A DNA stretch of 44,967 bases from an uncultured delta proteobacterium (GCA_963731595.1 CAVSWE010000003.1:300948-345914); one strand, 5' to 3'. Shown: positions 804-32,905, counted from the stretch's first letter. Program-made: numbers and translations. The notes: generated by a model from the sequence alone, not told the origin.

Positions 804-942
804 CACTCGCCGACGGACCACGCGCTAGCTTCACGGGGCCTCGCCCGGATGACTGCAGCGGCCCGTGGACGGGCCGTTTCAGCCGGGACCGCGAGCCCGG
901 AAACGAGCACGGCGTCGACCACGCCGGGAAAGGAAGCGCACG

Positions 943-1750
943 ATGGAGCATAGCGGCCCGCTCATCGCCGGCGTCGGGCTCACCGACCCTGCCCGGCGCA
1001 GCCATTGGCCGGCGAGGCTGGACCTGGCGCAGAGCGCCTCGGGTCTCCTGCTCGCGCTTTTCATGTGGGCGCATATGGCCTTCGTCTCGTCGATCCTGCT
1101 TGGCAAGGACGTCATGTGGATGGTCACGAAATTCTTTGAAGGCTATTTTCTCTTCGGCCGGTCCTATCCGGGGCTTGTCTCGACCGTGGTCGCGCTGGTC
1201 ATCGCGCTCGTGGTAACGCACGCCATTCTGGCGCTGCGCAAATTCCCGATTAACTACCGTCAGTTCAGCACCTTTCGCGGCCATATGCGGATGCTGCGGC
1301 ACGAGGACACAACGCTTTGGTTCTGGCAGGTTGTCACTGGCTTCGCCCTGTTCTTTCTCGCCTCGGTGCACCTCTACATCATGCTTACCCGGCCCGACCG
1401 TATCGGGCCGTTCGAATCCGCCGACCGGGTGTGGAGCGACCATTTCTGGCCGCTGTATATCGTGCTACTGCTGACCGTCGAGGTGCACGGCGGGGTCGGC
1501 CTGTACCGGCTTGGCCGTAAAATGGGGTTGGTTCGCAGGCGGCGATGCGAACGCGGTGCGGCGTCGGCTCAAGCTCGCCAAATGGGCGCTGACGGCCTTC
1601 TTTCTGGTCCTTGGCGTGGCGACTCTGGCCGCCTATATCAAGATCGGCATCGAGCACCGTGACCACTATGGCGAGCACTACGTTCCCGCGGCGCAGCAAG
1701 CGTCGTCACCCCAACCCGCCGCTGGGGGCGCGGCGGGGAGCCCTCGGTGA
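943..1750 (+). CDS. frdC: quinol:fumarate reductase dihaem cytochrome b membrane subunit (Wolinella type), +1 frameshift at ~1511-1516
   Basis: [11 protein letters not shown]...[14 protein letters not shown]...[54 protein letters not shown]...GLYRL aligns along its length with W. succinogenes FrdC. The C-terminus ..[16 protein letters not shown] continues in the +1 frame (ORF 1511..1750). An extra G in cttGGccg breaks the frame. The frdC stop overlaps the frdA GTG (GTGA). Confidence 0.8.
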
Positions 1751-3765
1751 ACGTGATCTACACCGACGTGCTGGTGATCGGCGGTGGCCTCGCCGGGTTG
1801 CGGATCGGCATCGGTGCCAAACGCCGCGGCCAAGACGTGATCATCCTGTCGCTCGTCCCGCCCAAGCGCTCGCACTCTGCGGCGGCGCAAGGCGGCATGC
1901 AGGCGAGCCTGGGCAACGTCGTCAAGGCGATGGGTGACAACGAGGACGTGCATTTCGAAGACACCGTGCGGGGCAGCGACTGGGGCGCCGATCAGCGCGT
2001 CGTGCGCATGTTCGTCGACACGGCGCCCAAGGCCGTGCGCGAGCTTGCCGCGTGGGGCGTGCCGTGGAGCCGCGTGCAGAAAGGTGACCGGAAGGTGATC
2101 ATCAACGGGCAGAAGGTCACGATCACGGAGCGCGACGAAGCGCATGGACTGGTGATGCAACGCGACTTCGGTGGTACCAAGAAATGGCGCGCCTGCTACG
2201 TCTCCGACGGCACGGGTCACGCCATGCTGTACGCGATGAGCGACCAGGCAATCGCCCACGCGATCAGCGTGCACGAGCGCATGGAGGCCCTGGCGCTGAT
2301 CCACGACGGGTCGCGCTGCTATGGTGCGGTAGTACGCAACCTCGTGACCGGGAAATTGGTCGCGTACGTCGCCAAGGCTACCGCCATTGCGAGCGGCGGC
2401 GCGGGACGCCTCTATCGCGCGACGACCAACGCGGTCATCTGCGAGGGCATCGGCACGGCGCTGGCGTTGGAGACCGGCGTGGCAATGGTAGCCAACATGG
2501 AGGCGATCCAGTTTCACCCGACGGCAATCTTTCCGGCATGCATTCTGGTCACCGAAGGCTGCCGTGGGGACGGTGGATTGCTGCGCGACGCTGCGGGCAA
2601 GCGCTTCATGCCCGACTACGAGCCGGAGAAGAAGGAACTCGCCTCGCGCGACGTCGTATCCCGGCGCATGGAAGAGCACATCCGCAGGGGCGCGGGCGTG
2701 AAGTCACGGTTCGGCGAGCATCTGTGGCTCGACATCACCCTGCTCGGGGCCAAGCACATCGACAGCAACCTGCGCGAAGTGAAGGAGATCTGCCACTATT
2801 TCCTCGGCATCGATCCGATCAAGGATTGGATACCGGTGCGACCGGCACAGCATTACACGATGGGCGGGATCCGGACCGACCACACCGGCGGTAGCCCGAC
2901 GCTCAAAGGACTCTACGCCGCCGGCGAAGCCGCGTGCTGGGACCTGCACGGCTTTAACCGCCTGGGTGGAAACTCGGTCGCGGAAACCGTCGTCGGCGGC
3001 ATGATCGTGGGCGAGTTCATCGCCGATTTCTGTGCTCGTCCCGAGAGCAACCTGCAGTTCTCCACCGGCCTGATCCGCGAATTCCTGGAGCACGAGCAGG
3101 CCAAGCTCGACGCGCTCGCCGGTAACCGGGGCGGGGAAGAAGCCAACGCATTGCGGGTCCGAATGCAGGAGATCATGACGACCAAGGTCGGGATCTTCCG
3201 CACCGGCGGGGAGCTTGCCGCCGCGGTCGAGGAGCTGCAGTCGCTGCTGCGGCGCAGTCAGAACATCGGCCTGCGCTGCACCGCAAGTGGCGCAAATCCG
3301 GAGCTCGTTTCCGCCTACCGGGTCCAGAAGATGCTGCGGCTGGCGCTGTGCGTCGCCTACGGCGCGCTGACTCGGACCGAGAGCCGGGGCGCGCATTTTC
3401 GCCATGACTATCCGCGGCGCGACGACGCCGAATGGCTGAACCGCACGCTAGCAACGTGGAAGAGCGCCGACGACATGCTGCCGACGCTGGCACGCGAATC
3501 GCTTGACGTGATGCAGATGGAGCTGCCGCCGGGGTGGCGCGGATATGGGGCGAAGGACTACGTCGAGCATCCCGACACGGCGCGTCGTACCGCGGAGGTG
3601 GAGGCGATCAGGACCAGGCTCGTCAGTGCCGGCCGCGGGGTCGTACAGGAGGCCCTGATGCCGTACGCTGAGCTCATGCCCGAGCGCTTCCGCGGACCCA
3701 ACGAGCGCATCGATGAGCCGCTGCCACCGTCTCCCGCAGGCCCGCAACGACCGAGCCCGACATGA
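1747..3765 (+). CDS. frdA: fumarate reductase flavoprotein subunit
   Basis: 672-aa ORF with GTG start. It has an N-terminal FAD Rossmann fold ([11 protein letters not shown]), the covalent-FAD His region ([10 protein letters not shown]), and the active-site motifs [11 protein letters not shown] and HYTMGGI typical of FrdA/SdhA. Confidence 0.92.
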
Positions 3766-3822
3766 CCGGAGCCACCGCCATGGCCATCCCCGCCGGGGCC
3801 GCCTGAACGACCGCGGCGCAAG

Positions 3823-4536
3823 GTGCGGATTAGCGTCCTGCGCTACAACCCGCAGGAGCGCGGCAGTGTTCCCCGCATGCAGGCCTACGAACTCGAAGAG
3901 GCCGAGGGAATGACGCTGTTCATCGCGCTCAACGAAATCCGCGAAAAGCAGGACGCATCCCTGCAATTTGACTTCGTCTGCCGCGCCGGGATATGCGGCA
4001 GCTGCGGGATGCTGATCAATGGGCGCCCAGGGCTCGCCTGCCGTACGCTGACAAAGAACCTGGACCCGGAGATCACGCTGGCGCCCCTGCCGGTCTTCGA
4101 ATTGATCGCCGACCTTTCGGTGAACACCGGCAAGTGGATGCGGGCGATGAGCGAACGGCTGCAGACCTGGGTGCACATGCGCCAGAAAGAGGTGGACACT
4201 TCCCGGCTCGAGGAGCGCATGGAGCCGGAGCTGGCGCAGAAAATTTACGAACTTGATCGCTGCATTGAATGCGGGTGCTGCGTCGCCGGTTGTGGCACCG
4301 CGCGCATGCGCGAAGACTTTGTCGGCGCGGTCGGCCTGAACAAGATCGCCCGTTTCCGGCTCGACCCGCGCGACACGCGCACCGACGCAGACTTCTACGA
4401 ACTGGTCGGTGACGACAGCGGTGTATTCGGTTGCATGTCCTTGCTCGCTTGCCACGATGTCTGCCCGAAGGAGTTGCCGCTCGCAACGCAAATCGCCTTC
4501 ATGCGTCGCAAGATGGTGAGCATCGGTTGGAAATAG
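3823..4536 (+). CDS. frdB: fumarate reductase iron-sulfur subunit
   Basis: 237 aa. It carries the 2Fe-2S motif CRAGICGSCGMLINGRPGLAC and the 4Fe/3Fe cluster motifs CIECGCCVAGC and CHDVCP. Confidence 0.9.
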   Translation: MRISVLRYNPQERGSVPRMQAYELEEAEGMTLFIALNEIREKQDASLQFDFVCRAGICGSCGMLINGRPGLACRTLTKNLDPEITLAPLPVFELIADLSVNTGKWMRAMSERLQTWVHMRQKEVDTSRLEERMEPELAQKIYELDRCIECGCCVAGCGTARMREDFVGAVGLNKIARFRLDPRDTRTDADFYELVGDDSGVFGCMSLLACHDVCPKELPLATQIAFMRRKMVSIGWK

Positions 4537-4568
4537 CAGCGTCTTTTTGCACCCTATGTGGAGGAGTC

Positions 4569-5575
4569 ATGAAGGTCGCAACGAAGTTTGCAACACTAAG
4601 TGTCGCACTGGCTAGTTTAGCGATTGCGTTCGGGGCACCCGCACAGCAGCCGATCATCATCAAGTTCAGCCACGTCGTTGCCGTCGACACGCCCAAGGGC
4701 AAGGGCGCGGAGAAATTCAAGCAGCTGGCCGAGGAGCGTACGAAGGGCCGGGTCAAGGTCGAGGTCTACCCGAACAGCACGCTGTACAAGGACGGCGAGG
4801 AAATCGACGCCCTGCAGCTGGGCTCGGTGCAGATGCTCGCCCCCTCGGTGGCCAAGTTCGGGCCGATGGGGGTGCGCGAATTCGAAGTCTTCGACCTGCC
4901 GTACATCTTTGACGACTTCGGCGAGCTGCACAAGGTCACCGAAGGCGCGGTTGGGAAACTGCTGTTCCAGAAACTCGATTCGAAGGGCATCGTCGGTCTT
5001 GCCTATTGGGACAACGGCTTCAAGGATTTCAGTGCCAACAAGCCGCTTAGGCTTCCCGGCGACGTCAGGGGTCTGAAGATGCGCATCCAGTCGTCGAAGG
5101 TGCTCGATGCCGAAATTCGTGCCCTCGGGGGGATTCCGCAGGTGATGGCCTTCTCCGAGGTGTATCAGGCGCTGCAGACCGGCGTGGTCGACGGCACCGA
5201 GAATCCACCGTCGAATTTCTATACCCAGAAGATGAACGAAGTGCAGAAGTATCTGACCCTGAGCGATCACGGCGTCATCGAATACGCGGTAATCGCGAAC
5301 AAGAAATTCTGGGATGGCTTGCCGGCGGATATCCGCACCATCCTCGAAGGCGCGATGAAGGATGCGACCAAATACGCCAACGACATCGCCAAGGAGGAGA
5401 ACGACAAGGCGCTCGCGGCGGTCAAGGCGACCGGGAAGACTGAAATCCTGACGCTCAGCCCCGATGCGAAGGCGGCCTGGAAAAAGGCGCTCTGCCGGTG
5501 CATCGAGAGATGGAAAGCCGGGTCGGCAAGGACATCATCCAGGAGGTCTACAAGGAAACCGGGTTCAAGCCCTGA
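4569..5575 (+). CDS. dctP: TRAP transporter substrate-binding protein DctP (C4-dicarboxylate), one -1 frameshift in an A5 run at ~5481
   Basis: MKVATKFATLSVALASLAIAFGAPAQQPIIIKFSHVVAVDTPKGKG... is a typical DctP with signal peptide. After ..AAWKK the conserved C-terminus (LPVHREMESRVGKDIIQEVYKETGFKP*) reads in the -1 frame and ends at TGA 5573..5575. The as-given ORF instead runs on to 5711. Confidence 0.8.
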
Positions 5576-5624
5576 CCGAGCGTTGCAGCGCCTGATGCGC
5601 GAGCCGGGTTCGACGCAAACCGAC

Positions 5625-5651
5625 GCCGCTGCGGCCCGCAGCGGCTTTTTT
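5625..5651 (+). terminator. rho-independent terminator (or attenuator) between dctP and dctQM
   Basis: gccgctgcgg-ccc-gcagcggc is a perfect 10-bp GC stem, followed by tttttt. It sits 50 nt after the reconstructed dctP stop. Confidence 0.5.
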
Positions 5652-5694
5652 GTGTGCAGCAGAACGGCGGTCGACCAACCGGGGACGCTTGCGC

Positions 5695-6306
5695 ATGCTG
5701 AAGCTCCTTGACCACCTCGAAGAGTGGCTCATCGCGCTGCTCATGGGCGGCGCGACGTTGATCATCTTCGTGGCCGTCGTTCACCGCTATGCCGCGGGCC
5801 TGCCCATCCCCGTGGTGCAGGACTGGCTGCTTGCGCTCAACCTGTCGTGGGCGCAGGAAGCATGCATCTACATGTTCGTATGGATGGCCAAGTTCGGTGC
5901 CGCTTACGGCGTGCGCACCGGCATCCACGTCGGCGTGGACGTGGTGATCAATCACCTGCCCGACGGCGTGCGCCGCAAGTTCATTCTTTTCGGACTGGGC
6001 GCCGGCGCGCTGTTCACCGGCGTGGTGGCCTCGTTCGGCGCCAGTTTCGTGTGGCAGCTCGCCCACACCGACCAGACCTCGCCCGACATGGAGCTGCCGA
6101 TGTGGCTGGTCTATCTGGCCATTCCCTGCGGCTCGGGGCTGATGTCCTTCCGCTTCCTCCAGGTGGCGTGGAACTTCTGGCGCACGGGCGAGCTGCCGCA
6201 TCACGACCCGACCGACGTGGCGGGCGTCGAAAAAATTGCCGACCAGGACGCCCACGTCGGCCTGGCGCAAGACAATCTTTTTCCCGCGCCGCCTGGCAAG
6301 CGCTGA
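5695..6306 (+). CDS. dctQ: TRAP transporter small permease DctQ
   Basis: MLKLLDHLEEWLIALLMGGATLIIFVAVVHRY... has four predicted TM helices, typical DctQ size and position. Confidence 0.8.
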   Translation: MLKLLDHLEEWLIALLMGGATLIIFVAVVHRYAAGLPIPVVQDWLLALNLSWAQEACIYMFVWMAKFGAAYGVRTGIHVGVDVVINHLPDGVRRKFILFGLGAGALFTGVVASFGASFVWQLAHTDQTSPDMELPMWLVYLAIPCGSGLMSFRFLQVAWNFWRTGELPHHDPTDVAGVEKIADQDAHVGLAQDNLFPAPPGKR

Positions 6307-6309
6307 GCC

Positions 6310-7605
6310 ATGACCTCCGCCATCATCTTCGGGCTGTTGATCGCGCTCATGCTCACCGGCATGCCCATCTCGATCGCGCTCGGGCTCACGGTCCTGACTT
6401 TCGTGTTCACCATGACCCAGGTGCCGATCGAATCGGTGGCCCTGAAGCTGTTCACCGGCATCGAGAAGTTCGAGATCATGGCCATCCCCTTCTTCATCCT
6501 CGCCGGCACTTTCCTCACCCATGGCGGGGTGGCGCGGCGGATGATCAATTTCGCCGCCTCCATGGTCGGCCATTGGCATGGAGGGCTGGCGCTCGCAGGC
6601 ATCATCGCCTGCGCGATGTTCGCGCTTGTATGCGGTTCGAGCGTCGCCACGGTGGTGGCCATCGGCTCCATCGTGCTGCCGGAGATGGTCAAGCGCGGCA
6701 TCCCCATGGACTTCGGCGCCGCCGTGATCACCGTCGCCGGTTCGCTCGGCATCCTGATGCTGCCGTCGATCCCCAAGGTCATCTACGCGATCGCCACCAA
6801 CACCTCGATCGGCGCGTTGTTTGTCGCCGGCCTGCTGCCGGGGATCCTGCTGACCACGATGCTCTGCCTGGTCACCTGGTATATCGCCAAGAAGCGCAAT
6901 TACCCGCGGCTGCCGCGCGAAAGCTGGGGCGCGCGCTTCAAGGCGTTCCGAGAGTCCGTCTGGGGCCTGATGCTCGTGGTCATCATCATCGGCGGCATCT
7001 ACTCGGGGATCTTCACCGCCACCGAGGCGGCCGCGATGGCCGCGGTGTACGCGTTCTTCGTGTCGGTGTTCGTGTACAAGGCCATGCCGCTCAAGGATTT
7101 GCGCAAGGTGCTGCTGACCTCGGCCAACATGAGCGCAATGCTGCTCTACATCATCACCAACGCGGCACTGTTCTCGTTCATCCTCACCAACGAGAACATT
7201 CCGCATGCCCTGGCGGACTGGATTATTGCCAAGGATCTGGGCTGGGTGGGGTTCCTGTTGCTGGCCAACGTGCTGTTGCTCCTGGCCGGCAATTTCATGG
7301 ACCCGTCCTCGGTCATTCTCATCATGGCGCCGATTCTCTACCCCGCGGCGATGACGCTCGGGATCAATCCGGTGCATCTCGGCATCCTGATCGACGTCAA
7401 CATGGAGGTCGGGCTCTGCCATCCCCCGGTGGGGCTCAATCTGTACGTGGCCTCGGGCATTTCGCGCCTCGGCATCACGCAGCTGACCAAGGCGCTGGTT
7501 CCCTGGCTCGTCACCATGCTGATCTTCCTGGTCATCGTCACCTATTGGCCGGCGCTGTCGACCTGGCTGCCGCAGAAGATGGGTATGATGGGGCCGTTGC
7601 CCTAG
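6310..7605 (+). CDS. dctM: TRAP transporter large permease DctM
   Basis: 431-aa polytopic membrane protein with DctM-family sequence throughout (MTSAIIFGLLIALMLTGMPISIALG...). It starts 4 nt after the dctQ stop. Confidence 0.9.
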   Translation: MTSAIIFGLLIALMLTGMPISIALGLTVLTFVFTMTQVPIESVALKLFTGIEKFEIMAIPFFILAGTFLTHGGVARRMINFAASMVGHWHGGLALAGIIACAMFALVCGSSVATVVAIGSIVLPEMVKRGIPMDFGAAVITVAGSLGILMLPSIPKVIYAIATNTSIGALFVAGLLPGILLTTMLCLVTWYIAKKRNYPRLPRESWGARFKAFRESVWGLMLVVIIIGGIYSGIFTATEAAAMAAVYAFFVSVFVYKAMPLKDLRKVLLTSANMSAMLLYIITNAALFSFILTNENIPHALADWIIAKDLGWVGFLLLANVLLLLAGNFMDPSSVILIMAPILYPAAMTLGINPVHLGILIDVNMEVGLCHPPVGLNLYVASGISRLGITQLTKALVPWLVTMLIFLVIVTYWPALSTWLPQKMGMMGPLP

Positions 7606-7647
7606 GTCCGGCGGGTCGAATCGACAAACGGCCGCTTTTCCGCGGCT

Positions 7648-7953
7648 ATGTTACTCCGACCCACTTCGCAGATAAACTTCAGTTCTTTTGGCCCAACCAG
7701 TATGCGGCTCGCAAAGTTCGTCAAGGTACGCGAGGAGAAATTTGGCGGCGTCCTCTTCGAGACGCGCTCGGAGAAGGTTTTTACGCTCAATCCAACGGCC
7801 ATGGCGGTCGTGCGCGAGATCGAAGCAGGCCATGACGAGCGCGAGATCGCCATGCGACTGAAGGCGCGCTTTAACGACAGTACCGACGTGATCGAGCGCG
7901 AAGTCGTCGCGTTCATCGCGGAGCTGCGGCAGAGAAGCCTTGTCGAGGGTTGA
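7648..7953 (+). CDS. PqqD/MftB-family peptide chaperone (RiPP recognition element protein)
   Basis: (M)RLAKFVKVREEKFGGVLFETRSEKVFTLNPTAMAVVREIEAGHDEREIAMRLKARFNDSTDVIEREVVAFIAELRQRSLVEG matches the PqqD-family pattern (FG..L...., LN.ta..vw, C-terminal fi..L). An alternative start is ATG 7702. Confidence 0.65.
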   Translation: MLLRPTSQINFSSFGPTSMRLAKFVKVREEKFGGVLFETRSEKVFTLNPTAMAVVREIEAGHDEREIAMRLKARFNDSTDVIEREVVAFIAELRQRSLVEG

Positions 7954-7957
7954 GCGC

Positions 7958-9112
7958 GTGACAACATTGGCAACGGATAACGGACCCGACTCCGCGATCC
8001 CAGCGACGACCTCGACCTACGCCTGCTCGGAGGACCTCGCCGCGCCACTCTACGTGGCCTGGCAGATCACCAACGAATGCAACCTCGCCTGCCTGCACTG
8101 TATCGAGGAGAGCGGGCCGGGCAAGGCGTTCGCAGATGAGCTCGACGCGGCGCAGATATTCTCGGTGCTCGACCAGTTGCTGGACCACCAAGTCCCCTAC
8201 ATGTCCTTCTCGGGCGGCGAGCCTATGCTGCATCCGCAGTTCTTCGAGATGGTGGAGCACGTCTGCGCGCGTGGCGCCCAGCTCAAGATCGAGACCAACG
8301 GTCATTATCTGTCCGCCGAAAACTGTGCGCGGATGAAGGAACTCGGCGTCAAGGCGGTCCAGGTGAGCCTCGACGGCGCGTCCGCCAAGACGTTCGAGCG
8401 TATGCGCGTGCGCGGGAACTTCGATCGCACGCTCGATGGCCTGCGCAACCTTCGCGCGGCAGGCGTGCCCGTGGAGATTAACTTCTCGCCCGCCTGCTTC
8501 AACGTCCATGAGATCGGCGCGGTCGTCGACCTCGCATACAAGCTGGGCGCATACAGCTTCTACACCGGGACGCACGATGTACACCGGCAACGCCGTCAAG
8601 GCTTGGCGCCACCTGGAAGTTTCGGAGCCGAGCAATACGAGGCGTTCTTCGCTGTTCTGCGGCAAAAAGCCGAGGAGTACCACGGCCGCATGCGCGTCTA
8701 CTTTCACGAGGCGGGGTTGCTCGAGGAGCTGCGTTATCGCCTGCAGCACCCGGCTGCGCTGCTGATCGTGCTCCCGAACGGCCTGGTCAAGCTCATCAAC
8801 GCCTTGCCCTTCGTGTGCGGCGATTTTCGCCGCCAGACGCTGCGGGAAATCTGGGCGAATTTCCGCCGCGCCTGGCACGACCCGCGCGTGGCACAGTTCG
8901 TCGACGAGCTTGGCACCGACCCGGGCGGACACGGACGCTGCACCAATGGGTCTATCTTTGACTGCGCTGCCCGTGCGATCCGGCCGTTCGGCGCGCACGG
9001 CGCTGCACCGGCTGCTCGCCGTTTGCCGCCTGGTGCGCTACCGGTTTTTCCTATATGCCGGGCTGCTGCCGTATCTGCTCGGCGCGGCCTGGGCCTACGC
9101 TCGCGCTGGTAG
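7958..9112 (+). CDS. radical SAM enzyme, MftC/PqqE-like (SPASM-family-like) maturase, paralog 1 of 3. The 3' end is uncertain and there is an internal compensating frameshift pair at ~8570/8623
   Basis: ..PLYVAWQITNECNLACLHCIEESGPGKAFADEL..FSGGEPMLHPQFFEMV..QLKIETNGHYL..VQVSLDGASAKTFERMRVRGNFDRTLDGLRNLRAAGVPVEINF aligns block by block with mycofactocin maturase MftC (CLTWELTYRCNLACVHCLSSSGKRDPGEL...GGGEPTVRPDF...VQISLDGATAEV...). The CxxxCxxC motif follows the W-x-I-T motif. Its tail overlaps the start of the prenyltransferase gene. Confidence 0.72.
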   Translation: MTTLATDNGPDSAIPATTSTYACSEDLAAPLYVAWQITNECNLACLHCIEESGPGKAFADELDAAQIFSVLDQLLDHQVPYMSFSGGEPMLHPQFFEMVEHVCARGAQLKIETNGHYLSAENCARMKELGVKAVQVSLDGASAKTFERMRVRGNFDRTLDGLRNLRAAGVPVEINFSPACFNVHEIGAVVDLAYKLGAYSFYTGTHDVHRQRRQGLAPPGSFGAEQYEAFFAVLRQKAEEYHGRMRVYFHEAGLLEELRYRLQHPAALLIVLPNGLVKLINALPFVCGDFRRQTLREIWANFRRAWHDPRVAQFVDELGTDPGGHGRCTNGSIFDCAARAIRPFGAHGAAPAARRLPPGALPVFPICRAAAVSARRGLGLRSRW

Positions 9113-9897
9113 CCTTCGACGCGCCGATTTTCTGGAGCGGCCTCGCGGGTGTAGTGCTCGCCGTAATCGGCGTCGAGGCATTCAACGAGTATTTCGATTC
9201 ACGCATGGGCACCGACCGCGTCTTCAACCCGGCCGAACTCCCGCCGATGTCTGACGCAGTGCTCTGGTTGGGCATTGCGGCCTTCGCCGGCGCGCTGGCG
9301 GTCGGCATCTACCTGACCGTGCGTGGCGGCTGGCCGATCCTGGCCTTCGCACTCCTGGGTGGAACGGCGGCGATCTTTTATGTGGCGCCCCCGATACGCT
9401 GGGCCTATCGTGGCCTGGGCGAACTGGTCATCGCCCTGTCCTACGGGCCCTGGATGGTACTGGGCAGCCTCTACCTGCAGAGCCAGGCGCTGTCGTGGGG
9501 GGCGCTCTTCGCGTCGCTCGTACCGGGATGCCTGATCATGGCGCTCGCGGTCGTCAACGCGATTCCCGATTACCACCAGGATCGCTTGGTCGGCAAGCGC
9601 AATCTCGTCGTGCGGCTCGGCCGCCGGCGCGCGGTTTGGCTGTATCTTGCCCTTGCGGCAGGCGGACTGCTGGTGGTGCCGGTCGGCGTAGCGAGCGGCA
9701 TCTCCCCGCCACCTGCCTGGCGGCCTTACTGGCGGTGCCGCTGCTCGTGGCCAGCGGCCGCTGCGCGCTGCGGCACTTATGAAACACCGCGCGCCTTTGT
9801 TCCCGCCGTGCGCAGCATCGTCGGCTGCTATCTGGTCGCCGTCGTGCTGTTCACCGCCGGCGTCCTGTGCAGTGGCGTAGCGTCCTTGCGCCCATGA
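8946..9897 (+). CDS. UbiA-family polyprenyltransferase, MenA-like (1,4-dihydroxy-2-naphthoate polyprenyltransferase-like). As given it carries ~3 frameshifts (~9095, ~9715, ~9780)
   Basis: Reconstructed MGLSLTAL..RLVRYRFFLYAGLLPYLLGAAWAYA / LALVAFDAPIFWSGLAGVVLAVIGVEAFNEYFDSRMGTDRV...NAIPDYHQDRLVGKRNLVVRLG has both UbiA Asp-rich motifs (N-x3-D-x5-D and D-x3-D). The NAIPDYHQDRLVGKRNLVVRLG segment matches E. coli MenA NNLRDINSDRENGKNTLVVRLG. The start overlaps the paralog-1 radical-SAM gene; the stop overlaps the paralog-2 start (ATGA at 9894..9897). Confidence 0.7.
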
Positions 9898-10861
9898 ACT
9901 GGATCGATCGCCTGCGCGCGCCGCTGTTCGTGTCCTGGCAGATCACGCGCGACTGCGACCTGTGCTGCCTGCATTGCTGCACCGAGTCGGCGCCGGGGAA
10001 GCGGTTGCCGGACGAACTCGACGCTGCCGAAGCGACGTGGCTGGCCGAGGAGATCGTCCGCAACGCAGTGCCCTACGTGATGCTTTGCGGCGGCGAGCCT
10101 TTGGTCGTGCCGCACTTTTTCGCCCTTGCCGAAGTCGCTGGGGCGGGCAGGCGTCCAGCTGAAGATCGAGACGAACGGGCAGCGCTTCGATGCCAAACTC
10201 GCCGCCCGGCTCGCCCGCCTGCCCGTCCGGTCGGTACAGATTAGCCTGGACGGCGACACACAGGAGGTCTACGAGCGCCAGCGGCCCGGGCGGCTTCGCT
10301 CGCCAAAGCCCATGCGGCCTGCCGCGCCGCTCGTGCGGCCGGGCTGCCGCTCGAAGTCACCTTTGCGCCGACCCGGCTCAACATTCACCAGGCCGGGCCG
10401 GTCATCGAGCGGGCGCGGGCGCTTGGTGCCTTTCGCTTCAATACCGGGCGGCTCATGCGCATCGGCACCGCCGCGCGGCTGTGGGAGAAGCTCGAGCCTT
10501 GCCGAGGAGCAATACCGGGAATTCCGCGCCTGTTGAACCGCATGGCCCGGCGCCTAGAGGGGCAACTGGAGATTTGCCATGCTCCGTTTGACCTCGCGGA
10601 AGGGCTGCGCGGCAGCCTCCAGAACGCCGCCGGCAACCCTGCTCGTGCTGCCCAACGGCTGGGTCAAGGTTGCCGCGGCACTGCCGCAGATCTGCGCTGA
10701 CTTGCGCCGCCATAGCCTTGACGGAGGCCTGGGAGGCCTACCGCAACGCGTGGCGGAGTGATACAGTGCTGGCGGAAGTACGGCGCGCGGTCGCCGATCC
10801 ATCGCGTCACGCGCGAGGCCAACAGTTGGCAGTTGTTGCCCGTCGCCCCGGTGTGACCTGA
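9894..10861 (+). CDS. radical SAM enzyme, MftC/PqqE-like, paralog 2 of 3. It is broken into at least 4 ORF pieces by about five 1-nt indels, from sequencing error or real pseudogenisation
   Basis: The pieces MNWIDRLRAPLFVSWQITRDCDLCCLHCCTESAPGKRLPDELDAAE..CGGEPLVVPHFFALAE / VQLKIETNGQRFD..VQISLDGDTQEVYERQRPG / ..AARAAGLPLEVTFAPTRLNIHQAGPVIERARALGAFRFNTGRLMRIGTAARLWEKLEP / LLVLPNGWVKVAAALPQICADLRRHSL / EAWEAYRNAWRSD.. are collinear with paralog 1 across four reading frames. Confidence 0.6.
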
Positions 10862-10872
10862 CGGAGGGAAAA

Positions 10873-11025
10873 TGAGCGAGTTGAACCTGACGATCGAAGC
10901 CGCCAAGACCGGCGACGAACGCAAGACCGATACGGTGCAGCCGGCGCAAAAGCCGCATGGGAAACGCCCAAGCTCGAGGACGTGTCCGAGCAGGTGATGG
11001 CCCAACCGTATATCCGCTTCACCTG
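10873..11025 (+). CDS. candidate RiPP precursor peptide (51 aa, reconstructed across one frameshift in an A4 run at ~10949-10952); PqqA-like C-terminal core
   Basis: A strong SD (ggaggg-aaa-ATG) precedes it. Frame 1 reads MSELNLTIEAAKTGDERKTDTVQPAQK. After a 1-nt indel in caaaag the frame continues as AAWETPKLEDVSEQVMAQPYIRFT* to the TGA at 11023. The W-x-x-P-x-L-x-D-V...E...Y pattern recalls PqqA (WKKPAFIDLRLGLEVTLY). It sits immediately upstream (20 nt) of paralog 3. Confidence 0.4.
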
Positions 11026-11045
11026 AGATACCCAGAACTTTCGCA

Positions 11046-11982
11046 ATGCCGGGGCGTTCGGTAGAAGAGTACCGAGCACCCCTTTTTCTTGCCTGGCAGC
11101 TGACCAACCGCTGCGCTGCGCGCTGCATCACCTGCTGCGAGGAATCCGGTCCCGATAAGGCATGGGGCGATGAGCTTTCCCGTGACGAGGCGATCGCGCT
11201 TGCACGGCGCATCGCGGCGTTCGGCATCGCCTACGTTGCCTTCGGCGGCGGCGAGCCGCTAGGTGTACCGCATTGCTGGGATCTGCTCGAGCTGCTCGCC
11301 GCGGCCGGCATCGCTCTTAAGATCGAGACCGACGGCAGTCACATCGACGCTTCCGCGGCCGATCGGCTCTCGGCGCTCGGCGTCGAGTGCATCCAAATTT
11401 CGGTCGACGGAGCGACAGCGGCGACGCATGAGCGCGTGCGTCCGGGATCGAGCTTCGCCGCGGCGGTCGCCGCCATCGAGCGACTGGTCGCGCGCGGTCG
11501 TGCACCGCAATTGGTGTTCGTTCCCACCCGCTTCAACTGCACGAGATCGTCGCCGCGTTCGATCTGGCGGCAACGCTCGGCTGCGGCGCATTCGTCACCG
11601 GCCCGCTGATGCGCATCGGCCGCGCCGCGGGCGCACTGGCAGCGCATCGCCTGCAGCAGACGAGGAGTGGCGCGCCGCGGTTACCGCGTTGAGAGAACGC
11701 ACCGCGTCGATGCGGCCCCGGAATGGCCCTTGTCGATCTATCCTTGGGACATTCGTTGCGGAGATGGAAACGCGGCTCGAGCGACCGCAGGCGATGCTGC
11801 TGGTCGTGCCCAACGGCAAGGTCAAGCTGCTCAATGCGCTCCCGTTCGCCGCCGCCGACCTGCGCCGCGATTCGCTCGAGGACGCGTGGCGGGCCTATCG
11901 CGACGCCTGGCATGCGCCGGAGGTGCGCGAATTCATCACCCGCTGCCGCAGCCAATCCAGCGCTGCTGATGCACGCCAATGA
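11046..11982 (+). CDS. radical SAM enzyme, MftC/PqqE-like, paralog 3 of 3 (at least 2-3 frameshifts as given)
   Basis: MPGRSVEEYRAPLFLAWQLTNRCAARCITCCEESGPDKAWGDEL..AFGGGEPLGVPHCWDLLELLAAAGIALKIETDGSHID..IQISVDGATAATHERVRPGSSFAAAVAAIERLVARGRAPQLVFVPTRFN, then in other frames ..AFVTGPLMRIGRAAGAL.. and ..ERPQAMLLVVPNGKVKLLNALPFAAADLRRDSLEDAWRAYRDAWHAPEVREFITRCRSQSSAADARQ*. This is collinear with paralogs 1 and 2. Confidence 0.6.
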
Positions 11983-12112
11983 GACATGGCCGATGGTTAG
12001 GAACGACGGTTGACCCCCGCGCCAGAAACCCCAATACTTAAGCGGCTGTGATTGAATACTTACCCGTCGTAGCGAAGCTTTTGAGGGCCCGGGAGCCCGC
12101 TGATCGGTTGCG

Positions 12113-12442
12113 ATGCATCGACTGACATTGGGACTACTCGCCGCCTGCACCGCTGGCGCAATCGCGGTTGCGGCCCAGCCAGCGCCGGACAGCTCCCGCG
12201 GCGAGCTCCTCTATTCCACCCATTGCATCGGTTGCCATAGCGCGCAGGTGCATTGGCGCGAAAAGAGGCTGGCGACAGACTGGGCAAGTCTCAGGATGCA
12301 AGTATTTCGATGGCAGATGAACACGGGCCTCGCCTGGAGCGACGAGGACATCGTCGCTGTCACCCGCTATCTGAACGATCTCTACTACCGTTTTCCGACG
12401 CCGGACAGGCCGGTGGCATTTCAGGGGTCGTCGGGTAACTGA
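12113..12442 (+). CDS. secreted mono-haem c-type cytochrome (109 aa)
   Basis: It has a signal peptide (MHRLTLGLLAACTAGAIAVAAQPAP) and a single CxxCH haem-binding motif (HCIGCHS). Same strand as the radical-SAM cassette, 130 nt downstream of it. Confidence 0.65.
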   Translation: MHRLTLGLLAACTAGAIAVAAQPAPDSSRGELLYSTHCIGCHSAQVHWREKRLATDWASLRMQVFRWQMNTGLAWSDEDIVAVTRYLNDLYYRFPTPDRPVAFQGSSGN

Positions 12443-12585
12443 TCCCGGGCTGCCGCGTCAAATCGATGTGAGTCGCTCGTTCTTTGCCGTCGACAAATGC
12501 TCTAGCTCGGGAGGCGCGCGCATACGACGGTCGAGTCCATCTCCCAGCGAGTGATCACTCGTGCCCCCAACGCGAGTGTACTGTT

Positions 12586-13095
12586 CTAGCTTGGCCGCCG
12601 CTGCAATAACGTGCCCAGGAGCAGAGCGAAGCCCAGGAAAATGACAAGCGACGCTTGCGCCAGAGTAAGTCCCAGGATCTTAAAGGACGTATCGGAACAG
12701 TCTCCCGTGGCATGCAGCAGTTGGGTCAGTACTTCGCTGACCGCCATGGTGTCCAGCATGTAGGCCAGGCCGGCACTGCAAGAGGCGACGCTTGGTGCCG
12801 GAAAAAGTTGCAGGTACGTCTGATAGCCGGCGACCCCGAGTCCTTCCAACGTCAGGATCGCAGCCATCCAAAGGAGAGCCCGCTGTACTCGACCTTGGGG
12901 CCGCGCCACGGCTGCGGCAAAGAAGACGGGTATCAGGCCAAGATACGTGAGCCGTTGGATGATGCACAAGGGGCACGGTTCGATCCCCAGTATGTGCTGG
13001 ACAAAAAAGCTTGCACCGACAAGACCGGTGCAGGTCACTCCAAGCAAGATCGAAACTTGGGCAGGAGAAGTCAGCACACGCGAAAGCCTATTCAC
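12586..13095 (-). CDS. dsbB: disulfide bond formation protein B (DsbB family)
   Basis: Four TM helices. A first periplasmic-loop CxxC (EPCPLCIIQR) and a second Cys pair (SCSAG ... GDCSD) fit the DsbB architecture. Confidence 0.6.
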   Translation of the reverse strand: MNRLSRVLTSPAQVSILLGVTCTGLVGASFFVQHILGIEPCPLCIIQRLTYLGLIPVFFAAAVARPQGRVQRALLWMAAILTLEGLGVAGYQTYLQLFPAPSVASCSAGLAYMLDTMAVSEVLTQLLHATGDCSDTSFKILGLTLAQASLVIFLGFALLLGTLLQRRPS

Positions 13096-13511
13096 GGAAA
13101 TCGGCCGGCAATGCAGCTCCCCGCGGGACCCAGTACGCTAGGGGAATTTTGCCACGTCCGAGCCTGATCTCAGAAGTTTCTCCTCCGCAAAGGGCTGCTT
13201 CACCGCCCCAGGCCCGACGCGCGGAGCTTGGCCGCAATGGCTGGTGAATTTCGGCTTCACGACCCGGTGATCGCCCGGAGGCGCATCGCGAAATGCGCCT
13301 GGTCTGCGCCAAAGTGGCGCGAACGGCGCCTGGTTGACAGTCGGGGAATCGCCTGGCGGTTGCATGTTAAATCAATAACTTGCGACGCTTACCCTCTTAG
13401 TTGCGCATGAATTAGCGTCGTTGGAGTTTCCTTGAGGTACATCAACAGCCCAGATACGGCTTGGCTATAGGCTTCGTATTGCGGTGCAACAAAATCACGT
13501 CAGGAGCGCCC

Positions 13512-14327
13512 ATGGAGTTTCAAGGAAAAGTTGCGGTAATTACCGGTGCGGCCAGCGGCATCGGACGGGCGGTGGCGTTTGAATTGGCGCGCCGCAACGT
13601 GCGCGCGATGGCGCTGGTGGACATAGGCGAGAACATCGATGGCGTCGCCGCAGAAGTCAATGCGAAGGCCGGCCGTCAGGTCGCCTACCCTTACCGGGGC
13701 GATACGACCGACGAGGCGTTTCGCGCTTCGGTTTTCGATTCCATCAGTAGCCAGTTCGACACCGTCACGATGTGCGTGCCGGCCGCCGGCATCACGCGCG
13801 ACGAACTTGCAGTCCGTATCGACAAGATCACTGGCAAGGCACGGATCTATCCGGTGGACCGGTTCAAGCAGGTCATCGATGTGAACCTCGTGGCGCCGGT
13901 CTACTGGGCGCTCGAGATGATCGGACGCATCGCCGAGAATCGCGCCGCCTGCGGCCTCAAGCGATGGCAGCCGTCGGAGGGCATGCAAGGGGCCATAGTG
14001 TTCATCGGCTCAGTTTCTTCGCAGGGCAATCGTGGCCAGATCTCCTACGCCAGCGCCAAGGCCGGCCTCGAGGGAGCGGCCGCGACGATTATGAAGGAGG
14101 CGGTTTTCTACGGCGTTCGCTGCGGGCTTATCCACCCGGGGTTCACCGACACACCTATGGTGCGCGCAATGGGTGATGACTACATCAGCAAGCACATATT
14201 ACCTTTCACCCAATTGAGCCGGTTGATTCGCCCCGAGGAAATTGCCGATGCGATCTGCTTCATGCTCGCCAACTCGGCGGTGAGCGGCGAATTGTGGGCG
14301 GACGCAGGCTGGCATGCACCCGCGTAG
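13512..14327 (+). CDS. SDR-family short-chain dehydrogenase/reductase
   Basis: MEFQGKVAVITGAASGIGRA carries the TGxxxGxG NAD(P)-binding motif, and the catalytic Y-x3-K sits in SYASAKAG. Confidence 0.8.
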   Translation: MEFQGKVAVITGAASGIGRAVAFELARRNVRAMALVDIGENIDGVAAEVNAKAGRQVAYPYRGDTTDEAFRASVFDSISSQFDTVTMCVPAAGITRDELAVRIDKITGKARIYPVDRFKQVIDVNLVAPVYWALEMIGRIAENRAACGLKRWQPSEGMQGAIVFIGSVSSQGNRGQISYASAKAGLEGAAATIMKEAVFYGVRCGLIHPGFTDTPMVRAMGDDYISKHILPFTQLSRLIRPEEIADAICFMLANSAVSGELWADAGWHAPA

Positions 14328-14904
14328 CCGCGGTGACCTGGCAGCTTCGAGCGAGGGTCCTACCGCTGCTCCGCCGACGCGGGATGAGGCCGTCGACACG
14401 GAGGGTGAATCCGAGGTGCCGGCGCGCGGCGCCCAGCGGCAATGGCCCGGAACGGATCCGAACCAGTTTCCTTGGACTAAGGCTCTCGCCGGCGATCCCA
14501 GTCTTGTCGCGCCGGTGATTGCCTCGCCGGAGGAGATCCTCCGTGCCCGGGAAATACGAGAGCAACTCAAGAAGACATACTTAGATCGCCCAAGCCAACC
14601 TTGCTCCCTATGGTGGGTTGATATTGACTAAGTAACCCGTAGCCGGGTCGCCAATTTTCGGGCCAATGTTAGACGAACCCGCCATCTTGTGCCGTGAACA
14701 GCAGATCCCATGGACTGTCGCCAGTGCCGATCCAATATGAAATCAATCCTTCTTCTCGACCTTACGCGAACTCAGCGAGAAAATGTAGCACTTGCAGTAT
14801 TGCAATAGGGTTTCGGGAGCTTGGGCTGTTGCACCGTGGACATTATGGCGACGCAAGGAGCTCCAGCGCGAGGGCTCGAGGCAACCGATGATCTGCGAAC
14901 GCTC

Positions 14905-16569: not shown

Positions 16570-17051
16570 TCAGCCCGTGAACTCATGCGCCCTGACCTGG
16601 CCGTGCTGGCGGCGAGCGACGTCTTTCAGCCGCGCGGTGAGGCTCGCGAAGCCGTCGCGCAGCGCGACATACACTTCCTCGTCGTGGTCGCAATTGACGA
16701 CGAGCTCGTGGCCCGGAAGATCCGTGAGGTCCGGATTGCCACCATGCGACGGCATCTGTCGGACACCCTTAAGCGCATTCTTTTCCGCACCCGCCCGGTG
16801 CTCCAACTTCAGCCGGTCAAGCAGCGGTGCCGCGTCCGGAAGGCGCACACGCAAAAGCTGGAACAGATACTGATCCTCCTTGGGATGGTGAAAGCACTCG
16901 CGGAATGCATCGATGTAATAGATCATCGCCCCAGCACGCCGAAATCCGACGTGGCTCCCCGGTCGCGGATCTGGTGCACCAGATAAAGCATGCCGTGCAA
17001 GACCGCCGCCAGCGAACGGTGTTCGTCCTGAATGGCGCGGTTCGCCTGCAT
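16570..17051 (-). CDS. hemerythrin-like (HHE cation-binding) domain protein, one frameshift at ~16930
   Basis: MQANRAIQDEHRSLAAVLHGMLYLVHQIRDRGATSDFGVLG then shifts frame to MIYYIDAFRECFHHPKEDQYLFQLLRVRLPDAAPLLDRLKLEHRAG.., with the H-x3-E / HH..KE motifs of hemerythrin-like domains. ATG 17051 lies 25 nt downstream of the hemN stop. Confidence 0.55.
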
Positions 17052-17075
17052 ATTCGTCCTTCTTTCCCGAATGCA

Positions 17076-18478
17076 TCAGATGATGCGCGAGTTGCGCGCC
17101 GCCCACGCTGCTCACGCAGGTAACGGTCGAATACCATCGCCACCGTGCGAACTAAGAGCCGACCGCGCGGCGTCACGTGGATCGCGTCCGATGCGATTTC
17201 GACCAACCCGTCGTCGGCCAGCGGTGCAAGTGACTTGAGCTCGGTTGCGAAGTAATCGCGGAACGCGATGGCGTACGCGCTCTCGACGCGCTCGAACGAG
17301 ACGGTGAATTGGCACATGAACGCGTGGATCACATCGCGCCGCAAAACGGTCGTCGGCAGAAAGCCGCCAGCCGCGAAAACATGGTAGCGCATCGTCGTCG
17401 AGCCGGGCGTAGTAATCATCCAGAGTACGCAGATTCTGGCTGTAGGACGCACCGACCTTGCCGATTGCGGAAATACCGAATGCCAAAAGATCGCAATCAG
17501 CGTGCGTCGAGTAGCCTTGAAAATTGCGGTGCAGCTTGCCTCACGCTGTGCGACAGCAAGCGCGTCGTCGGGCCGCGCGAAATGATCCATGCCGATGTAG
17601 ACGTAACCGGCGCCGGTCAACTTTTCGATTGCAAGCTCAAGAAGGGCTAACTTGGCCTCCGCCGACGGCAACTCCGCTTCGCTGATGCGCCGCTGCGGCT
17701 TAAACAGATGTGGCACGTGCGCATAGCTGTATAGCGCAAGTCTATCCGGCGCACCGTCGAGCACCTTGTCCAACGTGACGGCCGAAGCCGGCCAAAGTCT
17801 GCCGCGGGAGACCATAGATTAAGTCGATGTTTAAGGAGCGGAAGCCATTCGCACGTGCGGCGTCGAGTACAAATGCGAGTCTCGGCTTCCGATTGAATGC
17901 GGTTCACCGCCTGTTGTACGGCTGGGTCGAAGTCCTGTACGCCGATGCTCATCCGGTTGAAGCCAAGCTCCGAGAGAAGCTTAACCGTCCCGGCGACGCC
18001 AAATGGCGGGGGTCGACTTCGATCGAGCATTCGGCGTCAGGCACAAACGCAAAGCTGTCGTGTAGGACACGCCATAGCAACTGTCATTTCCTCGGCCGAC
18101 AGGAACGTCGGCGTGCCGCCGCCCCAGTGCAACTGTGTGACGGGGGACGCCGAATCGACGAGCCCCGACACGATTGCGACCTCCCTGCCGAGATAGTGGA
18201 TATATTTTGCGGAGCGGCCATGGTCCCGGGTCGTGACCTTGTTGCACGCGCAGTAGTAGCAGATGGTGTTGCAGAACGGCACGTGCACGTACAGCGACAG
18301 CGGCTGCGGCGCGCCGGCTCTGGCGGTTGACAAGCGCGTTAGCGAGATGGTCGGCGGTGAATGCTTCCGTAAAGCGATCTGCCGTCGGATAGGAGGTGTA
18401 GCGCGGCCCAAAGCCATCGTACTTGCGGATCAGATCCGAGTCGAACGGGAGGCCTGTAGTCGGCGTGCAGTGAACCAT
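17076..18478 (-). CDS. hemN: oxygen-independent coproporphyrinogen III oxidase (radical SAM), at least 4 frameshifts as given
   Basis: The pieces [40 protein letters not shown] / [36 protein letters not shown] / [22 protein letters not shown] / [67 protein letters not shown] / [24 protein letters not shown] are collinear with E. coli HemN across several frames. Confidence 0.7.
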
Positions 18479-30993: not shown

Positions 30994-31056
30994 CGTGCCT
31001 GGGACGAATTGCTGAGTGTGACAGGCCGAATCCAGAGCGCGATGTACACTGGTCGC

Positions 31057-32731: not shown

Positions 32732-32905
32732 CAAAACAATCCCGGTAAGTAGATCAGGTCGGTCGACGTCCTGAGCACCGGGTACTAAGTGCCTCGCGCC
32801 AAGTGCGTCGTGCTTCGAGCGACAACGCCGATGAGATTTGACGCTGATCAAAGCTAGGAATATGGTTGCCGAGAGATTGATGTTTCGGAACCCTTGGCGC
32901 TGCCG

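Follow-up and report, generated by a model that had tools for sequence, protein, structure and literature searches.

A conserved peptide-maturation cassette with three radical SAM enzymes and an embedded MenA-like prenyltransferase, a candidate source of a respiratory quinone

To our knowledge, all isoprenoid quinone head groups described so far originate from chorismate-derived small molecules through the Ubi, Men or futalosine pathways, and enzymes of the MenA and UBIAD1 type take small aromatic head groups as their substrates. The systems for pyrroloquinoline quinone (PQQ) and mycofactocin, the latter first inferred bioinformatically as a redox carrier, instead employ peptide precursors (PqqA, MftA) whose cores are invariant across phyla, a pattern unlike the hypervariable cores of antibiotic ribosomally synthesized and post-translationally modified peptides (RiPPs), and their radical S-adenosylmethionine (rSAM) enzymes PqqE and MftC need auxiliary-cluster cysteines. 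The present analysis concerns a cassette that combines elements of both groups, carried on a 44,967-nucleotide stretch from an assembly attributed to an uncultured delta proteobacterium (GCA_963731595.1, CAVSWE010000003.1:300948-345914; assembly G000, contig C3:300948-345914), which is referred to throughout as the window. The cassette consists of genes for a PqqD-like chaperone (a RiPP recognition element, RRE), three rSAM paralogues, a MenA-like prenyltransferase of the UbiA superfamily and a PqqA-like precursor peptide. Its identity as an RRE-dependent rSAM unit of RiPP type with these components, as put forward in a preliminary description of the window, is supported by Pfam matches, motifs and conservation. 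For the further proposal made there, that the product is a prenylated, peptide-derived electron carrier of the membrane, gene neighbourhoods and a distribution complementary to that of the menaquinone (MK) pathways provide real but circumstantial support, while the chemistry is something we infer; the probability that the cassette is a pathway for a peptide-derived, polyprenylated respiratory quinone is put at roughly 0.55. The components come from known superfamilies, but no counterpart has been described for a peptide-maturing RRE/rSAM module in which a MenA-like prenyltransferase is embedded and whose distribution is that of an alternative to Men and Mqn. The preliminary description had stated that no described system was known to combine a PqqD/MftC-type module with such a prenyltransferase, and no published account of the cassette was found in the full-text literature to late 2026; NCBIfam release 20 has no model for the cassette rSAM enzymes or peptide, and the second pqqADE copy in Hyphomicrobium (PMC12423496) is a different cluster.

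A profile search with rSAM-1 across 185,579 species genomes, one genome per species, gave 243 candidate stretches, 235 of which encode rSAM-1 relatives, and gene order was read in 80 loci fetched from other genomes. The order PqqD-rSAM1-UbiA-rSAM2-peptide-rSAM3 was present in every sufficiently long locus with one exception, L091, and this recurrence therefore places the arrangement far beyond chance. The 80 loci derive from soil and groundwater metagenome-assembled genomes (MAGs) and from the cultured Rhodopila globiformis DSM 161, with carriers among the Burkholderiales (Casimicrobiaceae, Usitatibacter), Steroidobacteraceae and other Gamma- and Betaproteobacteria, the Elusimicrobia and the Acetobacteraceae (Acidiphilium and Rhodopila MAGs). 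The cassette occurs in 24 of 150 genomes in a sample of one Casimicrobiaceae-type family and in 11 of 201 genomes in a sample of Elusimicrobiota. Three loci from related Burkholderiales carry approximately 600-850 bp of extra sequence between rSAM-2 and the peptide gene (L029, 3426-4040; L041, 9764-10458; L044, 9784-10462). Metagenomes contain close homologues of the prenyltransferase in great abundance, annotated by pipelines as MenA. Several other high-GC long-read assemblies (P0001, P0003, P0004 and P0005) show frame noise of the kind described below for the window, and gene callers yield artificial fusions such as the 1396-aa rSAM-UbiA-rSAM-peptide-rSAM protein P0003 (an ERZ25039541 contig); wrong open frames and frame shifts thus often leave database entries for this family corrupt.

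The precursor gene lies consistently between rSAM-2 and rSAM-3, and 72 distinct peptides, typically of 51 aa, were recovered across three phyla. Variation is concentrated in their N-terminal halves and is nearly absent from the 22 C-terminal residues (W-[E]-x-P-x-[L/M/I]-E-[D/E]-V-S-x-x-V-[M/T]-A-Q-P-Y-I-R-F-T-stop), with the last eight (A-Q-P-Y-I-R-F-T) identical in all 72. There is no NCBIfam match for the peptide, and the small open reading frame (ORF), for which the preliminary description had raised the possibility of non-conservation, is instead among the most conserved features of the locus. By analogy with known systems, the invariant tail fits a cofactor precursor rather than an antibiotic core. 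The RRE gene is present in every locus extending far enough upstream; the window's product is 62% identical to its L013 orthologue and scores below the NCBIfam equivalog cut-offs for PqqD, MftB and the lasso RRE. Its ORF is open from 7648, and the ATG at 7702, which is the start used by relatives, is the more likely start codon. Structure prediction of the chaperone-peptide complex scored 0.43, against 0.00 for the best of three controls, with no interface reported; scores of 0.60 or less were seen in only 7 of 80 solved complexes, and the mark set for such predictions was reached by 58 of those 80 and by 2 of 110 mismatched pairs.

All three rSAM enzymes were scored against NCBIfam using both the window fragments and intact orthologues, and no paralogue reached any cut-off. 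MftC (TIGR03962) gave 100-118 bits against a cut-off of 265 and was the best match of rSAM-3 (100-111 bits), the AhbD and NirJ equivalogs gave 62-117 bits against cut-offs of 500-650 (AhbD on rSAM-1, 113-117 against 500), with NirJ, NirJ1 and NirJ2 among the other leading models, and PqqE (TIGR02109) gave 47-75 bits against 381. The profile comparison suggested in the preliminary description therefore places them in no characterized family, MftC, AhbD and PqqE all falling below cut-off. The cluster-binding motifs are CNLACLHC (CX3CX2C) in rSAM-1, which also has GGEP, CDLCCLHC in rSAM-2 and CAARCITC in rSAM-3; rSAM-2 shares 35-40% identity with each of the other two as a paralogue. CX3CX2C is present in 98-100% of orthologues of each paralogue (64-81 sequences each) and GGEP is kept, from which the cassette enzymes look active; PF04055 scores over its Pfam cut-off. 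The C-terminus of rSAM-1 has a SPASM-like fold that lacks the seven-cysteine motif, and PF13186, present in genuine MftC matches, is not found in close homologues of the cassette enzymes. The earlier characterization as MftC/PqqE-like needs correcting in that the SPASM cysteine motif is lacking. An AlphaFold (AF2) model of an rSAM-1 orthologue (predicted local distance difference test score 89.8) is nearest in structure to SkfB, PqqE and SuiB, followed by BlsE, and a sequence search of the PDB agrees: SkfB (6efn) is the closest solved structure (Foldseek E 2e-18, template-modelling score 0.71, sequence E 1e-19) and PqqE (6c8v) the second-best match.

The prenyltransferase retains both Asp-rich motifs intact (N-E-x-F-D-x3-G-T-D and D-x-H-Q-D-R-L-V-G-K-R-N), as do at least 95% of 73 orthologues. 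At least its top five NCBIfam matches are all of MenA type, with ChlG/BchG next at E 1e-10, although the scores lie below the respective cut-offs (99-108 bits against 264 for NF004751; 50-77 against 102 for TIGR00751), and its sole PDB sequence match is UBIAD1 (8djk), the prenyltransferase of menaquinone-4. Across three phyla the gene is always inside the cassette, with rSAM-1 and rSAM-2 on either side and reading frames that overlap or abut.

The cassette gene is the only TIGR00751 match in ten cassette genomes from four lineages. MenB was not found in nine of these ten genomes, MenD scored over its cut-off in none of the five in which it was tested, and neither MqnA/D nor MqnC was found in nine of the ten, the tenth being G000; MqnA/D is likewise not found in the 150 genomes of the Casimicrobiaceae-type family. 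One Elusimicrobiota genome (G044) has a UbiA superfamily consisting only of one haem O synthase, two enzymes resembling digeranylgeranylglyceryl phosphate synthase and the cassette gene. All five Elusimicrobia-like cassette genomes tested carry canonical NuoH, and because matches to cytochrome bd in such genomes were only marginal, NuoH was taken as the respiratory marker. Among the 201 Elusimicrobiota, 35 have NuoH at 300 bits or more, indicating complex I, and of these 11 carry only the cassette, 9 only MqnA/D, 12 only another MenA-like gene and 3 none of the three, with no overlap of any kind. Such non-overlap is the pattern expected of analogous pathways.

The cultured carrier, with its cassette at L094 6702-10955, is also the one for which quinones have been characterized: MK-9, ubiquinone (UQ) and rhodoquinone (RQ) are reported from Rhodopila globiformis, and a menaquinone (MQ) is modelled at the QA site in a 2.24 Å reaction-centre structure (PMC12542754, PMC9640540). 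Neither MenD nor MqnA/D was found in its genome, and two apparent matches to menaquinone genes were set aside, a 'MenB' (318 bits) that is BadI in a cyclohexanecarboxylate cluster and an 'MqnC' (327 bits) that is a CofGH F0 synthase. Its five UbiA-superfamily genes are CtaB, UbiA, BchG, a PRK08238-type gene and the cassette gene, the last being its only MenA-like one. As a separate observation, the fused CofGH F0 synthase (1139 bits) lies beside an F420-dependent luciferase-like monooxygenase (LLM) oxidoreductase in the same locus (L099, 7163-9685; G041:C274), and deazaflavin F420/F0 biosynthesis is therefore implied in this Acetobacteraceae phototroph.

Flanks differ between loci, and when those of all loci were clustered in a search for conserved neighbours there was no seventh universal cassette gene. 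True FrdA orthologues adjoin the cassette in approximately 14 loci, and the wider FrdAB(C) family in up to 25 Burkholderiales-type loci of the 80. The fusion of the cassette to a fumarate-respiration block, as originally proposed, thus holds for Burkholderiales-type loci but not for the cassette in general, and the frd block is a lineage-specific neighbour, in Casimicrobiaceae-like genomes, that stands outside the cassette. A DctM homologue is present in just five or so other loci. In approximately 21 loci the neighbours are an MtrB/PioB porin, a NapC/NirT (CymA-like) quinol dehydrogenase, multihaem cytochromes of the MtrC/OmcA type and cytochrome c. Four of five Elusimicrobia-like loci encode a polyprenyl synthase (PF00348, E 7e-40) immediately 5' on the same strand; in L061 this gene (5552-6496) ends 2 bases before the PqqD gene, as also noted for L059, L070 and L088. 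Two genes further upstream, L059, L061 and L070 encode a 562-aa protein in which a weak Peptidase_C39 domain is recognized and which could be the release peptidase that the cassette lacks. The theme common to these neighbourhoods is quinol-dependent anaerobic respiration and isoprenoid supply. The window's cytochrome c, counted as a cassette member in the preliminary description, is excluded together with DsbB, as homologues of both are conserved only in L079, the closest relative, among 86 loci. The statement that mftD/E/F and pqqB/C are lacking is borne out, with no mftD/E/F in the called genes and flank clusters of the loci, where only the RRE is shared with mycofactocin, and no pqqB/C among the conserved flanks.

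A Crp/Fnr-family regulator with a cNMP_binding domain is encoded immediately 5' of the PqqD gene in ten loci (for example L032, 5876-6718; also L021, L023, L027, L029, L031, L037, L041, L046 and L050), which hints at oxygen- or redox-dependent control of the cassette. Within the window, a palindrome upstream of frdC (TTGACGCAGGTCAA, 790-803) resembles an FNR/Dnr-type box with two mismatches to TTGAT-N4-ATCAA, and the FNR/Dnr-type pattern matches 24 times, against a mean of 10 in 100 shuffles and above every shuffle. There is no FNR box immediately 5' of the window's PqqD gene, the nearest candidates being inside dctM and upstream of frdC.

In the proposed pathway, a precursor of approximately 51 aa would be made whose invariant C-terminal region comprises a recognition segment (W-E-x-P-x-L/M-E-D-V-S) and a core (...V-M-A-Q-P-Y-I-R-F-T), and the PqqD-like chaperone would hold and present it. 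The three rSAM paralogues may then act in turn on the core to form an aromatic quinol-type head group, comparable to the action of PqqE and MftC on PqqA and MftA, after which a host peptidase from outside the cassette would free the head group and the MenA-like membrane prenyltransferase would add a long polyprenyl chain. The remaining steps would be completed by a host polyprenyl diphosphate synthase and a UbiE/MenG-type methylase. The predicted product is a respiratory quinone of low potential, which may be menaquinone or a naphthoquinone closely analogous to it, with complex I, type-B fumarate reductase and NapC/CymA-Mtr conduits as its likely users and, in Rhodopila, the reaction-centre QA site. 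That the cassette provides a ribosomal-peptide route to menaquinone or a very close naphthoquinone, third beside the known routes, is a more tentative suggestion than that of a peptide-derived quinone in general and is more doubtful than probable.

Several observations weigh against the quinone interpretation. How chemistry could lead from the core Y-I-R-F-T to an unsubstituted naphthoquinone is not obvious, no peptidase or methyltransferase is conserved in the cassette, and none of the three rSAM enzymes has the SPASM seven-cysteine motif, with just 3-5 scattered conserved cysteines outside the core. The exceptional locus L091 (Steroidobacteraceae SMAG_U12169, 7990-9256) has 179 bp between the prenyltransferase and peptide genes and is without rSAM-2, a natural two-rSAM variant. 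Absence of Men and Mqn is the default in Beta- and Gammaproteobacteria, such that the complementary distribution carries weight only for Elusimicrobiota and Rhodopila, and G000 itself has futalosine genes, although the window possibly comes from a different organism. In the Elusimicrobiota comparison, the 300-bit NuoH threshold was picked after a two-tier score distribution had been seen, kinship among genomes inflates formal statistics as kin are not independent, and the genomes in the pathway comparison are drafts or MAGs. The FrdC-type reductase is not strictly dependent on the cassette, since 48 of 126 genomes without the cassette in one family have this FrdC type, as do 19 of 24 with it.

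An ordinary RiPP, in which an rSAM-crosslinked and UbiA-prenylated peptide serves as a signal, an antibiotic or a membrane-anchored factor rather than as a respiratory carrier, is considered unlikely. The combination of RRE, rSAM enzymes and precursor is the architecture of RiPP maturation, the nearest solved structures are RiPP maturases, all 22 conserved C-terminal residues could be product given that a release peptidase is not conserved, and three Elusimicrobia-like loci encode the Peptidase_C39-domain protein two genes upstream. This core, however, is invariant across phyla, unlike the usually variable cores of bioactive RiPPs, and the flank clusters contain no conserved transporter or immunity gene, the neighbours being respiratory modules and polyprenyl synthase. 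A bioactive peptide would also leave unaccounted for the complementary distribution with MK pathways among complex-I-bearing Elusimicrobiota, and the nearest enzymes to the prenyltransferase, of MenA/UBIAD1 type, act on small aromatic head groups.

A division into two co-regulated functions, with UbiA prenylating a non-peptide head group while PqqD, the peptide and the rSAM enzymes make a soluble dehydrogenase cofactor like PQQ or mycofactocin, is less probable again. It would accommodate both the homology to the PqqD/PqqE/MftC systems, whose cofactors are soluble, and the lack of an evident chemical path from core to naphthoquinone. Against this, the prenyltransferase gene is placed between rSAM-1 and rSAM-2 without exception in three phyla, no partner dehydrogenase is conserved in the flank clusters, and the cassette genomes are without another known source of a naphthoquinone head group (MenB, MenD or MqnA/C/D). 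Tetrapyrrole modification by AhbD/NirJ-like haem rSAM enzymes and a UbiA homologue resembling haem O synthase is very improbable, as, although AhbD, NirJ and NirJ1/2 equal MftC in score over the rSAM core (113-117 bits on rSAM-1) and the neighbourhoods are rich in cytochromes, those scores are far under cut-off (113 against 500), the UbiA homologue matches MenA models with CtaB/CyoE not among the matched families, the genomes concerned encode bona fide haem O synthases separately, and the PqqD RRE and invariant precursor would be left unexplained.

The window copy of the cassette requires separate consideration. The seven features of the preliminary description were recovered in the window at the coordinates and on the strand given there (Table 1), along with the overlapping starts and short spacers at the cassette junctions, and the frameshifts it suspected are present as well. 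A three-way alignment with two intact references, L093 (an Illumina Casimicrobiaceae MAG) and L079 (syntenic with window 1009-14665), to which the window is 88-89% identical in DNA, revealed 25 window-private frameshifting indels between 8567 and 11952, comprising 18 insertions, two of them 2 nt long, and 7 deletions, with no coding indels between L093 and L079. Every gene from rSAM-1 through rSAM-3, the peptide gene included, is frame-shifted, and the window copy as assembled is unable to encode the cassette enzymes; the frd and dct coding sequence (1000-7600) has at most approximately three comparable events, others being in-frame or at gene junctions.

Table 1. Features of the cassette region of the window (G000 contig C3:300948-345914), with indels private to the window
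Feature	Position	Strand	Evidence and remarks	Window-private indels
Cassette, whole span	7702-12013	+		
PqqD-like chaperone (RRE) gene	7702..7953	+	PF05402 E 4e-13, 49.8 bits vs cut-off 23.4	none
rSAM-1 gene	7958..8961	+	GTG start; end 8961 read across frameshifts; PF04055 E 6e-26	8567 (+1), 8627 (+2), 8925 (-1)
MenA-like UbiA-superfamily prenyltransferase gene	8946..9897	+	PF01040 E 1e-22, over cut-off	8975, 8988, 9111, 9702, 9772, 9868, 9885
rSAM-2 gene	9894..10859	+	Radical_SAM E 5e-7 (on fragment); ATGA overlap with UbiA stop	10135, 10290 (+2), 10499, 10526, 10622, 10715, 10815
Precursor peptide gene, ~51 aa	10873..11026	+	motif common to orthologous peptides	10954 (1-nt deletion, putting both halves in different frames)
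rSAM-3 gene	11046..12013	+	PF04055 E 1e-20	11536, 11635, 11660, 11712, 11732, 11755, 11952
Small CXXCH (CIGCH) protein, putative mono-haem cytochrome c	12113..12442	+	no Pfam match	
frdC-frdA-frdB, quinol:fumarate reductase / succinate dehydrogenase	865..4536	+	Sdh_cyt; FAD_binding_2 + Succ_DH_flav_C; Fer2_3 + Fer4_8	
dctP-dctQ-dctM, tripartite ATP-independent periplasmic (TRAP) C4-dicarboxylate transporter, between frd and cassette	4431..7605	+	Pfam DctP, DctQ, DctM	

The most likely source of these indels is consensus error at a contig end that has poor support and may be chimeric or derived from an island. In four soil-metagenome runs belonging to two studies, Logan short-read contigs that are 95-99% identical to the window are in-frame at every covered indel site listed and restore the lost base of the peptide gene, placed at 10957, and because near-identical contigs lack them the indels are probably assembly errors. 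Window-private substitutions fall 36:33:150 across codon positions 1, 2 and 3, a bias no weaker than that of the intact L093 and L079 branches, and the bin 11500-12000 combines 7 indels with 3.4% substitutions; together with the in-frame short-read contigs, these features argue that the indels are not old biology. Double-called polymorphic third positions were rejected as the cause of the insertions, the preceding base being at codon positions 1, 2 and 3 in 5, 9 and 4 cases, which is chance-like. Frameshifts in G000, which is 85% complete in 12 contigs, also extend beyond the window, as two MqnC/MqnE-like rSAM genes of the futalosine cluster at G000:C4:2022676-2025691 (L100) are each split in two frames near model position 153.

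Composition raises a further question over the host. GC content is approximately 60% in the window and 70% in the G000 genome, and tetranucleotide correlation with contig C1 is 0.905 for the window compared with 0.997-0.999 for the large contigs. Contig C3 is a mosaic, with a centre (75-210 kb) of 70-72% GC, like the genome, and both ends at 59-67% GC, the window being its low-GC end; this composition is indicative of either a genomic island or chimeric joining, which makes the host assignment of the window uncertain. The cassette locus was not found in six same-genus genomes, and a DNA search of 40 relatives of G000 gave chance-level matches only. MqnA/D-type genes of G000 are located at C4:2023842 and C4:1254043, with a UbiA-family gene at C4:2020537.

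It is fairly improbable that, for the window copy alone, the 25 frameshifts are real and mark a cluster of pseudogenes in decay, carried on an island acquired by horizontal transfer, within a host whose menaquinone already comes from the futalosine pathway. Such decay would be in keeping with the foreign composition of the window, the lack of the locus in the six same-genus genomes, the presence of MqnA/D and MqnC/E-like genes in G000 and an indel density at 8567-11952 more than 15-fold that of the adjoining frd/dct genes. In decaying bacterial genes, however, deletions are generally commoner than insertions, the reverse of the 18 to 7 seen here, and relaxed selection is not apparent when 68% of private substitutions are at third positions and just 3.4% substitutions accompany 7 indels in 11500-12000. 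Moreover, none of the indels recurs in the four independent short-read runs, and other genes are split in an assembly that is itself incomplete and fragmented.

Other features of the window were recorded alongside the cassette. The membrane part of the frd block is one Sdh_cyt-type subunit by Pfam. On the minus strand, 16817-17815 is an ORF with only the C-terminal domain of HemN (oxygen-independent coproporphyrinogen-oxidase-like), the radical SAM part of which may lie upstream in another frame as the result of one more frameshift. Also on the minus strand, 25464-26867 encodes a 467-aa protein with four beta/gamma-crystallin repeats and similarity to Inhibitor_I36, near which are a Crp-type regulator (27669-28454), a ChaN haem-binding protein (30766-31944), a Sel1-repeat protein (32894-34516) and a patatin-like phospholipase (36838-38031).

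If the cassette does make a respiratory quinone from a ribosomal peptide, it would represent a new biosynthetic logic in central bioenergetics, with three new rSAM activities and a new MenA-like subfamily. Should that quinone be menaquinone or a very close naphthoquinone, the cassette would be the sole quinone pathway in about one-third of complex-I-bearing Elusimicrobiota, would explain MK-9 in Rhodopila globiformis without Men or futalosine genes, and would supply soil Proteobacteria that otherwise have only ubiquinone with a quinone of low potential to support fumarate respiration and extracellular electron transfer of the Mtr type. A peptide-derived quinone would also fill gaps in metabolic reconstruction for respiratory Elusimicrobiota and MK-9-producing Rhodopila, in which a known pathway is missing, and would alter predictions of how abundant soil Burkholderiales and Steroidobacteraceae, as yet uncultured, respire anaerobically and transfer electrons outside the cell. 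The hypothesis is directly testable because one carrier, Rhodopila globiformis DSM 161, is cultured and its quinones are already characterized. Even if the product is not menaquinone, the cassette represents a very widespread and unnamed family of RiPP type with a precursor invariant across phyla.

Compared with described systems, the cassette shares features with several. Among the twitch/SPASM maturases SkfB, SuiB and CteB, SkfB is the closest to rSAM-1 in solved structure, but these maturases act on secreted peptides, in which they form thioether or Lys-Trp crosslinks, and they carry auxiliary clusters and share only 16-23% identity. The futalosine pathway also uses rSAM enzymes, to build the second naphthoquinone ring, followed by a UbiA-family prenyltransferase, and is complementary to the cassette in Elusimicrobiota; its MqnC/E enzymes belong to the CofG/H-like rSAM branch and act on chorismate-derived small molecules, with neither peptide nor RRE. 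With MenA and UBIAD1 the cassette prenyltransferase shares its best families, its sole PDB match and the motifs N-x3-D-x5-D and D-x3-D, and no cassette genome examined has another MenA-like gene; the cassette prenyltransferase differs in falling under every MenA cut-off, in being always flanked by rSAM genes and in never occurring with menB/D or mqn genes in the genomes tested, the futalosine genes of G000 aside. The resemblance to mycofactocin extends to MftC as best or near-best match of the three rSAM enzymes, to MftB as a match of the RRE and to a C-terminal aromatic core as in MftA, while the rSAM enzymes are below the MftC cut-off, the peptide is without an MftA-type tail, mftD/E/F are missing from the loci, a prenyltransferase is present and the neighbours are respiratory complexes rather than nicotinoprotein dehydrogenases. 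The PQQ system is matched in its small precursor with a W-x-x-P-type leader and conserved Tyr, its PqqD-domain chaperone (PF05402), an rSAM enzyme of the PqqE structural group and an expected product that is a quinone cofactor excised from a peptide. Set against PQQ, the cassette has a PqqE score of 47-75 where 381 is required and no SPASM auxiliary cysteines, three rSAM paralogues in place of one, no pqqB/C found in its loci and a core of E-x6-Y (E-Q-V-M-A-Q-P-Y) where PqqA has E-x3-Y, and it embeds a membrane prenyltransferase, from which a lipid-soluble rather than a periplasmic product would be expected.

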